From Escherichia coli (GTDB lineage Bacteria; Pseudomonadota; Gammaproteobacteria; Enterobacterales; Enterobacteriaceae): 1,837 nucleotides of DNA. The position numbers were made by a program, and so were the translations under genes. Below are positions 87-1,522 of the stretch, one piece after another. The notes below the pieces were generated by a model. The model was not told where the DNA came from. It saw only the letters and a program-made list of their open reading frames with translations, and did not search any database. Location of the stretch: assembly GCF_003334355.1 (NCBI RefSeq), contig NZ_QOWP01000079.1; one strand, given 5' to 3'. Position 1 is the stretch's first letter. Each line of letters begins with the position of its first letter.

Positions 87-1064
87 ATGGGGGATACCCC
101 TGTCGACCTATCAAACACGGTAAAAGCTATCGACAATCAGATTGCCGTGTTAAGCCGCCCGGGCAAATCTCAGGATAGAGCCGCGGTAAAAGTCTTGCAG
201 CAATTTAAAGACGATATCACCAGCGGACCCAATGACCTGCGTCTGGCGAGAGAAAACAGAACTGACCTTCGAAAGCGGTTCATGAATTCAAACGAGACTG
301 TTGATAAAGACACGCTCCAGAAAGCCAGCGATATTGTCTACAAGGCATATACGCTGGATATGAGAAGGGCAGTAGCCCAGAAACTGGGTTCAGAAGAAGC
401 AGCCAATATGGCAAGGGTTGATCGCTCATGGTCTAAATTCAATGACATGATGGGAAGAACGCGCGTTCAAAAGGCAATAGCCAGCGGCAAGGCCACGCCT
501 GAGGATGTAACAAAACTCGTGTTTAGCCAAAGCCCATCAGAACGTTCTCAGCTTTACAGGCTTCTGGATGACAATGGTAGGCAAAACGCACGAGCAGCCA
601 TAGTTCAGAATGCTGTAGATAAGGCGACTGATCCGTCTGGAAATATCAGTGTTGAGAAGTTTATTAATGCGTTACACCGGAACAGGAAGCAATCAGCAAC
701 TTTCTTTAAAGGCGTGCACGGAAAGGAACTGGACGGCATTATTAAATACCTCAACGATACCAGACAGGCGGCAAAGGTTGACGGTCAGAAATTAAACAGC
801 CAGAAACTTTATGGCCTGCTGGTTGGTGGAGGCGCTATAAATGCGGCAGTTCTGGCGGGGATGCTGAAAACGGCTGCGTTTGTTGTTCCTGCTGCTGGTG
901 CTTTAGGCGGAGCAGCGAAGGCATACGAAAGCCCTGTTATACGAAATGCCTTATTACGTCTGGCAAATACGCCAAAAGGTAGCACAGCATATGACAGAGC
1001 GATCAGTACAGTCACACAATCACTGACCACAGCAGCACAAGCATCGCAAAAGGAAGCTCAATAA
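87..1064 (+). CDS. Hypothetical protein, 325 aa, hydrophilic N-terminal region and C-terminal Gly/Ala-rich hydrophobic hairpin (residues ~241-277); possibly 5'-truncated or promoter-disrupted by the adjacent IS
   Basis: Uninterrupted 978-nt ORF from ATG 87 to TAA 1062..1064 with protein-like composition throughout. In-frame stops upstream lie inside the IS. No canonical SD within 15 nt upstream of the ATG, which is only 9 bp from the IS terminus. By hand count, 12 of 23 Arg codons are AGA/AGG and there are 4 ATA Ile codons. No family assignment possible from sequence alone. Confidence 0.7.
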   Translation: MGDTPVDLSNTVKAIDNQIAVLSRPGKSQDRAAVKVLQQFKDDITSGPNDLRLARENRTDLRKRFMNSNETVDKDTLQKASDIVYKAYTLDMRRAVAQKLGSEEAANMARVDRSWSKFNDMMGRTRVQKAIASGKATPEDVTKLVFSQSPSERSQLYRLLDDNGRQNARAAIVQNAVDKATDPSGNISVEKFINALHRNRKQSATFFKGVHGKELDGIIKYLNDTRQAAKVDGQKLNSQKLYGLLVGGGAINAAVLAGMLKTAAFVVPAAGALGGAAKAYESPVIRNALLRLANTPKGSTAYDRAISTVTQSLTTAAQASQKEAQ

Positions 1065-1123
1065 CAGATGACCATGGATGGTTGGCTATAATAGTAATTA
1101 GTTTTTTCAAATAGTTATGAACA

Positions 1124-1522
1124 TTAACACTTGCCTTTAACATTGCCGACAAATGAGCCTGTAAATGAGCCTATATCAGATCGACTAATTGTTCGTGTAT
1201 GGATCACTTTTCCGTCATTTGAGATTGCCCATGTGACAAGCGTCAGTTGACCATCTCGATAGCTTCTTCCCATCATGGCATTCGGAGATAGCGGGTAATA
1301 ATCAATACCTCCACCTATACCATCTTTTGCCAAGATAAGATCCGCCTTCTCTTTACTTATTACCAAATGAAAGGTATCTGGTATAGATGATAACTTATAG
1401 TTATACCCATCTGAACTTGAGGCTTCTTGTCCTTTCAGATCACCAATAATCCAGCATTCAGCGTTCGCTCCAAAAGAAGCAAATAATAAACCGGAGACAA
1501 CCAATCGCTTCAATTGATTCAC
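1124..1522 (-). CDS. Hypothetical Sec-exported small protein (132-aa precursor, ~111-aa mature); start assigned to GTG at 1522..1520
   Basis: Stop TAA at 1126..1124 on the minus strand. GTG at 1522..1520 is preceded by GGGAGG with a 6-nt spacer, and translation from it begins MNQLKRLVVSGLLFASFGANA|ECWII, a canonical signal peptide. Alternative in-frame ATG starts at 1564..1562 and 1561..1559 have weak SDs. The six-frame ORF extends to 1837 only because the frame stays open through the IS end. Confidence 0.7.
   Translation of the reverse strand: MNQLKRLVVSGLLFASFGANAECWIIGDLKGQEASSSDGYNYKLSSIPDTFHLVISKEKADLILAKDGIGGGIDYYPLSPNAMMGRSYRDGQLTLVTWAISNDGKVIHTRTISRSDIGSFTGSFVGNVKGKC
1460..1522 (-). 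other. Predicted Sec signal peptide (21 aa) with AXA cleavage motif (ANA|EC)
   Basis: Positively charged n-region (MNQLKR), hydrophobic h-region (LVVSGLLFASFG), c-region ANA, then an acidic residue. There is no lipobox, since the Cys is at +2 after a Glu, so a lipoprotein is unlikely. Confidence 0.6.

Follow-up and report, generated by a model that had tools for sequence, protein, structure and literature searches.

A remnant of a P22 gene-16-type ejection-protein gene and an intact Hex-family gene between two IS1203/IS629-type ends in Escherichia coli

Introduction

The 1,837-bp stretch of Escherichia coli contig NZ_QOWP01000079.1 analyzed here, referred to as the window, carries two long convergent open reading frames (ORFs) between the ends of two insertion sequence (IS) copies: ORF A (87-1064, plus strand), encoding 325 aa, and ORF B (1124-1522), which is read from the minus strand and ends at 1124. 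Both ORFs are securely identified. ORF A is the 3′ part of a gene of the P22 gene 16 family, which encodes a DNA-ejection protein of the virion, and ORF B is an intact gene of the Hex family of small secreted proteins. In the corrected annotation, two IS copies accordingly flank a Hex-family gene and a probable pseudogene fragment of an ejection-protein gene. Hex stands for "heterologous exclusion": λimm434 lysogens of Salmonella are reported to exclude phage P22, and hex- lysogens are reported not to do so (Susskind and Botstein 1980, cited in PMC3564112). Hex of phage 434 is the only studied member of the family. An earlier note on this DNA, made from the letters alone, had proposed, as a hypothesis only, that the two ORFs form a functional module of a membrane-inserting protein and a small periplasmic protein. 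That module is securely rejected in its toxin/immunity form, and phage exclusion by ORF B alone is the role best supported by the sequence relationships described below.

Organization of the Locus

The segment bracketed by the two IS1203/IS629-type ends (79-1760) comprises 1,682 bp. Both ends are 100% identical to copies that abound in E. coli O157:H7 and further strains; the left piece matches thousands of E. coli records at 100% identity, with an annotated transposase coding sequence under the match, and the right piece is identical (100%) to loci annotated as "IS3-like element IS1203 family transposase." The two copies share one orientation, with the transposase on the minus strand, and their bodies run out of the window, the left copy leftwards and the right copy rightwards. 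The description of an IS-flanked segment with two convergent ORFs in the earlier note is thus borne out by the IS end matches and the ORF listing. The features of the window are collected in Table 1.

Table 1. Coordinates of the features of the window.
Feature	Position	Strand	Basis
Left IS1203/IS629-type copy (IS3 family)	1-78	-	100% match to E. coli IS3/IS1203 copies
Terminal inverted repeat of the left IS (IRL)	78-54	-	Inverted-repeat pair with the terminal repeat of the right IS (IRR)
Leader of the left IS and first 8 orfA codons, MTKNTRFS	ATG at 24	-	Sequence reading
3′ remnant of P22 gene-16-type DNA-ejection ("injection protein") gene	79-1064	+	Identity to 701-aa parent
Gly/Ala-rich hydrophobic segment, ORF A residues 240-277	804-917	+	Kyte-Doolittle
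Spacer between the convergent stop codons, 59 bp, AT-rich	1065-1123	.	ORF listing
Intact gene of 132-aa secreted protein of the Hex family (phrog_2651)	1124-1522	-	PHROGs, BLAST, alignment
Non-coding region upstream of ORF B, kept up to the right IS	1523-1760	-	Sequence
Right IS1203/IS629-type copy, 3′ end of transposase region	1761-1837	-	100% identity
Terminal inverted repeat of the right IS (IRR)	1761-1785	-	88% complementary to IRL

ORF A Is the 3′ Part of a Gene-16-Type Ejection-Protein Gene

ORF A translates into exactly residues 377-701 of the 701-aa "injection protein" annotated in E. coli strain 510016 (L001), and other records name this parent protein "P22-gp16 family phage DNA ejection protein" (gp, gene product). 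ORF A represents the 3′ 46% of this 2,106-nt gene, the first 373 codons of which have been lost at the IS junction (78/79). Its ATG at 87 is an internal Met codon, 9 nt from the junction, and no Shine-Dalgarno sequence precedes it. The earlier count of "exactly two genes" therefore does not hold, as one of the two is a fragment that starts at an internal Met.

The family assignment is supported by several comparisons. ORF A matches the PHROGs family phrog_770 "DNA transfer protein" (E 2.3e-91) and aligns by BLASTP with residues 294-592 of P22 gp16 at 32% identity over 314 aa (E 5e-40), including the conserved C-terminal motif YES..RN.LLRLANT. In tblastn searches, the 701-aa parent matches P22 gene 16 (E 7e-44) and its homologues in ST64T, Sf6, Emek, APSE, and Vibrio podoviruses. 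None of ORF A, ORF B, and the 701-aa parent has a match in Pfam; this is uninformative, because the control, P22 gp16, is likewise unmatched in the Pfam copy used. A "faint" match to PF26808 (Phage_P22_gp16) stands in a precomputed listing, and the Pfam copy used misses P22 gp16 itself. Searches of NCBIfam and PADLOC returned no matches, and a sequence search of solved structures gave nothing meaningful for ORF A or ORF B. The statement that the two genes have no recognizable domain is superseded, since PHROGs and BLAST identify both.

Furthermore, the gene order in uninterrupted relatives corresponds to that of a P22-type ejection-protein block. The gene of a 488-aa "phage DNA ejection protein" of the gp20 type lies directly upstream of the ORF A parent in L001, as gene 20 precedes gene 16 in P22, and homologues of gp14, gp7, and gp20 precede the gp16-like gene in a further relative (L017). 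In the window, the DNA upstream of ORF A has been replaced by the IS, and the gp7/gp20 synteny is seen only in the uninterrupted relatives.

Copies of this gene are also damaged elsewhere. In GCA_000194255, a single base pair is missing at nt 951 of the gene (L005 8874-10978), which splits it into two ORFs of 325 aa each; a frameshift of the gp16-like gene is annotated in strain HB37 and listed for L017 4883-6697. Because it has been frameshifted independently in other island copies, the gp16-like gene is regarded as decaying. The L005 frameshift turns the same internal Met into the start of a 325-aa ORF, and an ORF of this type probably explains the separate "family" phrog_29117 (327 positions).

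On the basis of these sequence comparisons, ORF A is probably a non-functional, 5′-truncated pseudogene fragment of a gene for a virion DNA-ejection protein. In an intact phage, the gene-16-type protein is carried in the virion, set free on infection, and associated with the inner membrane, through which it passes the DNA into the cell; this biochemistry is known for P22 gp16 (cited in PMC10883804). ORF A is probably the dead 3′ half of such a gene, in which 373 codons, the promoter, and the ribosome-binding site are missing.

The "membrane hairpin" proposed in the earlier note corresponds to a real hydrophobic stretch of 38 residues in ORF A (KLYGLLVGGGAINAAVLAGMLKTAAFVVPAAGALGGAA; residues 240-277; Kyte-Doolittle 1.6-1.7), although it does not belong to a toxin. 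P22 gp16 is reported to be membrane-associated and to help the DNA pass the inner membrane (PMC10883804). SieA of P22 blocks injection, and mutations that escape it map to the C-termini of gp16 and gp20; G532 and P546 of gp16 are two positions at which substitutions let P22 escape SieA exclusion (PMC10883804). In our alignment, these two residues correspond to ORF A residues 247 and 261, within the hydrophobic segment. The segment is thus read from the alignment as the C-terminal membrane-facing region of the gp16 family, where it would serve the function of an ejection protein. ORF A differs from P22 gp16 in that only the C-terminal 46% is present and in that its parent is longer (701 vs. 609 aa). 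The C-terminal segment of the parent is also far more hydrophobic, whereas P22 gp16 has no stretch reaching a Kyte-Doolittle value of 1.2.

ORF B Is an Intact Gene of the Hex Family

The best start of ORF B is the GTG at 1522, preceded five nt upstream by a Shine-Dalgarno sequence, GGGAGGG, at 1534-1528, and the same 132-aa product is annotated in at least one RefSeq record. A longer version starting at 1564, which is sometimes given in RefSeq, is unsupported by the family alignment. ORF B matches phrog_2651 (E 1.3e-22, PHROGs) and shares 31% identity over 123 aa with 434 Hex (E 3e-21, BLASTP). By tblastn, genes of approximately 30% identity are found in 16 phage records, including those of 434 ("repressor protection protein," i.e., Hex), Sf6 (gp38), HK446, HK633, Sf101, Huey, Chlobot, and the P22-like phages Emek (orf129) and ST-35.

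The view of ORF B as a small periplasmic protein is in keeping with its export signal. Residues 1-21 form a signal peptide with a predicted cleavage site, ANA|EC, leaving a mature protein of approximately 111 aa with Cys23 and Cys132. An AlphaFold2 model obtained with the family alignment (predicted local distance difference test score, pLDDT, 92.3) consists of an N-terminal helix, corresponding to the signal peptide, followed by an all-β barrel with the two cysteines on the first and last strands. Fold matches of the model are limited to generic small barrels. The mature part is short, contains a pair of cysteines, and does not end in an aromatic residue, all of which favors a soluble barrel in the periplasm over an outer-membrane protein.

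ORF B and ORF A differ in composition, with a guanine-plus-cytosine content of approximately 38-41% for ORF B vs. 45-51% for ORF A. Moreover, L015 and L016 share the nucleotide sequence of ORF B without a single difference (100% identity), even though their gp16 part differs by 3.1-3.5% (30-34 substitutions in 978 nt). Since ORF B is identical where ORF A differs to this extent, the pattern points to a recombination (mosaic) boundary at or near the end of gene 16 and not to measurable constraint.

The Hex Family and Its Genomic Sites

An exhaustive profile search was needed to delineate the family; a word-indexed homologue search gave only near-identical E. coli proteins. The family comprises 160 clusters at 50% identity, nearly all of 120-140 aa. 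All 89 aligned members begin with a basic N-terminus, which is followed by a hydrophobic core and a cleavage site of the AxA type. The Cys one residue past this site (Cys23 in ORF B) is invariant in the 89 members and is usually followed by Trp, Tyr, or Phe, and the C-terminal Cys (Cys132) occurs in at least 90% of them; ORF B has both. The mature parts of all 89 contain two or four cysteines, and the C-termini consist of Cys and polar tails without an aromatic residue. The universal Sec signal peptide and the cysteines are hard to reconcile with the cytoplasmic role described for Hex (PMC3564112).

ORF B resembles 434 Hex (= Sf6 gp38, HK446 gp39) in length, in the signal peptide followed by an E-C-W motif, in the C-terminal Cys, and in being prophage-borne. 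By contrast, hex of 434 (L003 2510-2914) lies in the PRM operon downstream of cI, and the hex-like genes of Sf6, HK446, and Chlobot likewise follow cI, whereas ORF B follows a gene 16 homologue and has no repressor nearby; nothing in the context of ORF B suggests the cytoplasmic RecA/repressor role published for 434 Hex.

Both arrangements recur among 80 IMG/VR viral loci, which a profile of the family recovered and which collapse to three sequence types. In 47 of the 80, which lack gp16, the Hex-like gene follows cI in the same direction, at the position of rexAB (the 434 type), and in 29 it is convergent with a gp16 homologue at a distance of 31-652 bp. The remaining 4 are placed otherwise: one is of the 434 type with its upstream flank cut off, and three lie beside mnt or a tailspike gene, in which the Hex-like gene is probably still between genes 16 and 9. 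With P22 SieA as the tblastn query (E ≤ 1e-3; SieA types B and C left out), none of the 80 loci, the window-type L018 and L019 among them, yielded a P22-type sieA.

Other members occupy different surroundings. One Hex-family gene is found in the tail-gene cluster of a siphovirus, on the opposite strand and beside homologues of rexA and rexB (L103 5001-6822), a site that looks like a moron hotspot for exclusion genes; it sits between the tail assembly genes and the tape-measure gene. Chromosomal sites include an IS-rich region and a position between atp and met genes.

The Slot at the End of Gene 16

The sieA gene of P22 occupies the interval from gene 16 to gene 9, where it lies 22 bp after gene 16 and in convergent orientation to it. 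According to Leavitt et al. (PMC10883804), sieA homologues are always located between genes 16 and 9. Inspection of the gene neighborhood, which the earlier note had recommended, had a positive outcome: at least four lineages that diverge from one another have a Hex-like gene immediately behind a gp16 homologue and convergent with it, at distances of 3-120 bp (the window-type, Emek/ST-35, P0009, and P0014 lineages). The P0009 lineage is represented by a metagenomic P22-like contig with the order gp14-gp7-gp20-gp16, followed by two tandem Hex-like genes (L099 3359-4164). These two are only 35% identical to each other, which suggests a diversification of specificity. In the P0014 lineage, the Hex-like gene follows by 3 bp a protein of at least 1,332 aa with a gp16-like C-terminus that is 34% identical to the window parent. 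A gp16 homologue is present in 163 phage records, only 3 of which (two phages, Emek and ST-35) have an adjoining Hex-like gene. What recurs is thus a moron slot closing the ejection-protein block and not an obligate pair; the adjacency reflects the architecture of P22-like genomes, in which the interval between genes 16 and 9 holds the sieA slot.

ORF B shares with sieA the slot, the convergent orientation, and the distance of tens of bp from gene 16. Both are accessory genes of the prophage type, and 434 Hex is likewise reported to exclude P22 (PMC3564112). The proteins differ: SieA crosses the inner membrane several times and has no signal peptide (PMC10883804), whereas the ORF B product is predicted to be a cleaved β-barrel of the soluble type, and the two have no sequence similarity.

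The Host Island

In uninterrupted E. coli copies, the genes of the window belong to an integrative island beside dinD/yicG/ligB (L001 1-17100, L005 1-15800, and L015-L017). Briefly, the island comprises, in order, genes for an integrase, AlpA, AntA, DUF4222, Phage_ASH/Icd, and a primase (TOPRIM-DUF927 or DUF5906), then the ejection-protein genes (gp20 and gp16; in L017 also gp14 and gp7), the Hex-like gene, variable cargo, and PerC. The variable cargo is defense-like; one copy has Abi_2, and another has ImmA/IrrE. No head/capsid, tail, or terminase genes are among these components, and the element looks like a satellite-type integrative island with an ejection-protein cassette. No description of satellites carrying ejection-protein genes was found in the literature searched on this point.

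Interpretation of the Locus

The window is, with fair confidence, a leftover piece of an ejection-protein cassette of the P22 type that belonged to an integrative phage-like island of the E. coli/Shigella type and was cut by IS copies at two points. Within it, ORF B is an intact Hex-family gene, probably a "moron" with transcription of its own, in the position that sieA occupies in P22. Because the export signals of the family are universal, its genes recur in exclusion-gene slots (sieA, rexAB), and no repressor is nearby, we infer that ORF B may act by periplasmic interference with the DNA delivery of P22-like phages, a reading that we put forward tentatively and at somewhat less than an even chance. 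The protein would be exported by the Sec pathway and cleaved after Ala21, a Cys23-Cys132 disulfide would close the barrel, and the barrel would disturb the trans-envelope DNA conduit (gp7/gp20/gp16) of superinfecting P22-like podoviruses, or a step coupled to it. The result would be the heterologous exclusion that genetic work reported for 434 Hex. P1 Sim, which is made with a cleavable signal peptide, and T4 Sp and Imm are small envelope proteins of phages that bar superinfecting DNA from the cell, as predicted here for ORF B, although these differ from ORF B in target phages and folds.

Several observations weigh against periplasmic interference. In the sole biochemical study of Hex, its role is placed in the cytoplasm (PMC3564112), and ORF B shares only about 31% identity with Hex. 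ORF B has no match in PADLOC, NCBIfam, or Pfam. A scan of the region upstream of ORF B gave no convincing sigma-70 promoter, and the right IS begins only 238 bp upstream of the start codon (GTG 1522). The identity of ORF B among the compared E. coli copies leaves no signal in the ratio of nonsynonymous to synonymous substitution rates (dN/dS). Moreover, some members of the family occupy ordinary chromosomal sites without phage genes nearby.

To our knowledge, SieA is the only known mechanism that blocks DNA injection by short-tailed P22-like phages. The Hex family is a candidate periplasmic counterpart to it, given the uniform signal peptides, the recurrent use of the sieA slot, and the exclusion of P22 by one member. 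A bolder proposal, which we hold with less confidence than the action of ORF B itself, is that the family constitutes a second, soluble periplasmic class of injection blockers, functionally interchangeable with SieA and acting on the gp7/gp20/gp16 conduit. If the family does act on this conduit, its recurrence in the slot between genes 16 and 9 would follow from that action, and the RecA/repressor role published for 434 Hex in the cytoplasm would come second to it or would stem from the expression of a fragment that lacks the signal peptide. In a related possibility, the host element would be a satellite-like island carrying only an ejection-protein cassette and this exclusion gene.

The ORF B product could also be a periplasmic barrel with another role, either an inhibitor of lysozyme or lytic transglycosylase resembling PliC/MliC or a lipocalin-like binder, and serve as a factor for lysogenic conversion or fitness. 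The modeled fold is generic enough for such a role; however, ORF B has no sequence similarity to the inhibitor families, the genetic phenotype reported for the only studied member is phage exclusion, and the family is found repeatedly in exclusion-gene slots. We therefore consider this role unlikely, while ranking it ahead of the alternatives that follow.

With regard to the origin of the IS-bounded form, 124 of 5,426 complete E. coli genomes carry the segment 78-1762 without an interruption (97.5-100% identity); together with the recurrence given below, this shows that the features of the window are no product of chance. Neither IS/cargo junction is present in these 5,426 genomes, and an exact search for the left junction in the GTDB representative genomes gave no match. 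The IS-bounded form is seen only in short-read assemblies: it recurs in an independent one as a 1,740-bp contig (L010, window 51-1790), broken at both IS ends, and another locus (L008) has only the left IS junction. This recurrence, together with the two IS1203/IS629 ends that bracket the segment in direct orientation, as in a two-IS element, would suit a composite transposon or translocatable unit that mobilizes ORF B as selected cargo. Such an element is nevertheless quite improbable, as the left junction is absent from the complete and representative genomes, samples with the left IS only fit two independent insertions into a pre-existing island, and the outer IS ends and target duplications fall outside the window.

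The published function of 434 Hex offers a further alternative, namely, that ORF B is a cytoplasmic "repressor protection" factor that stabilizes lysogeny. A Hex fragment comprising residues 43-103 inhibits the RecA-stimulated autocleavage of the 434 and P22 repressors, and complementation data accompany these in vitro results (PMC3564112); in addition, genes of the 434 type are co-transcribed with cI. Against this, every aligned member has a cleavable signal peptide and cysteines of the disulfide type, and export is never addressed in the Hex paper, the text of which contains none of the words "signal," "periplasm," and "membrane" (PMC3564112). ORF B and its counterparts in three other lineages adjoin gene 16 and not a repressor gene, and the host island has no cI-type repressor near ORF B. 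For ORF B, this function is very unlikely.

Finally, a self-contained pair of membrane and periplasmic protein carried as IS-flanked cargo, whether toxin/immunity, effector/inhibitor, or two-component exclusion, has next to no probability: the convergent adjacency does recur in four divergent lineages, ORF A does have a hydrophobic segment, and ORF B does carry an export signal, but ORF A is truncated at its 5′ end, lacks a ribosome-binding site, and is convergent with ORF B; its parent belongs to the 14-7-20-16 late-gene block, a well-understood pathway of virion DNA ejection, and such an assignment is what the earlier note had itself named as refuting the module; ORF B stays intact in island copies in which the gp16-like gene is frameshifted; the Hex family occurs without gp16 in the 434-type loci and in siphoviruses; and most gp16-bearing phages have no Hex (163 records vs. 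16). What survives of the earlier proposal is phage exclusion, which is plausible through homology to 434 Hex for ORF B alone.

Additional Observations

The distant family member P0029, which has four cysteines, lies on metagenomic contigs (L108 and L109) in a long array of small genes on the same strand, including DUF4272, DUF1761, HEPN, and DUF6678 genes; the array resembles one of integron cassettes or immunity genes. Because P0029 sits in such an array, the Hex family is not restricted to prophages.

In the window, the spacer between the two stop codons has a 4-bp indel among the E. coli copies, and a promoter/terminator scan of it gave no canonical terminator. An Rfam search returned sub-threshold noise only. 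A perfect 9-bp inverted repeat, GTTGCAAAA-ag-TTTTGCAAC, lies at 1741-1760, approximately 220 bp upstream of ORF B, and abuts the end of the right IS; it could be an operator-like site, a terminator-like site, or a preferred IS target.

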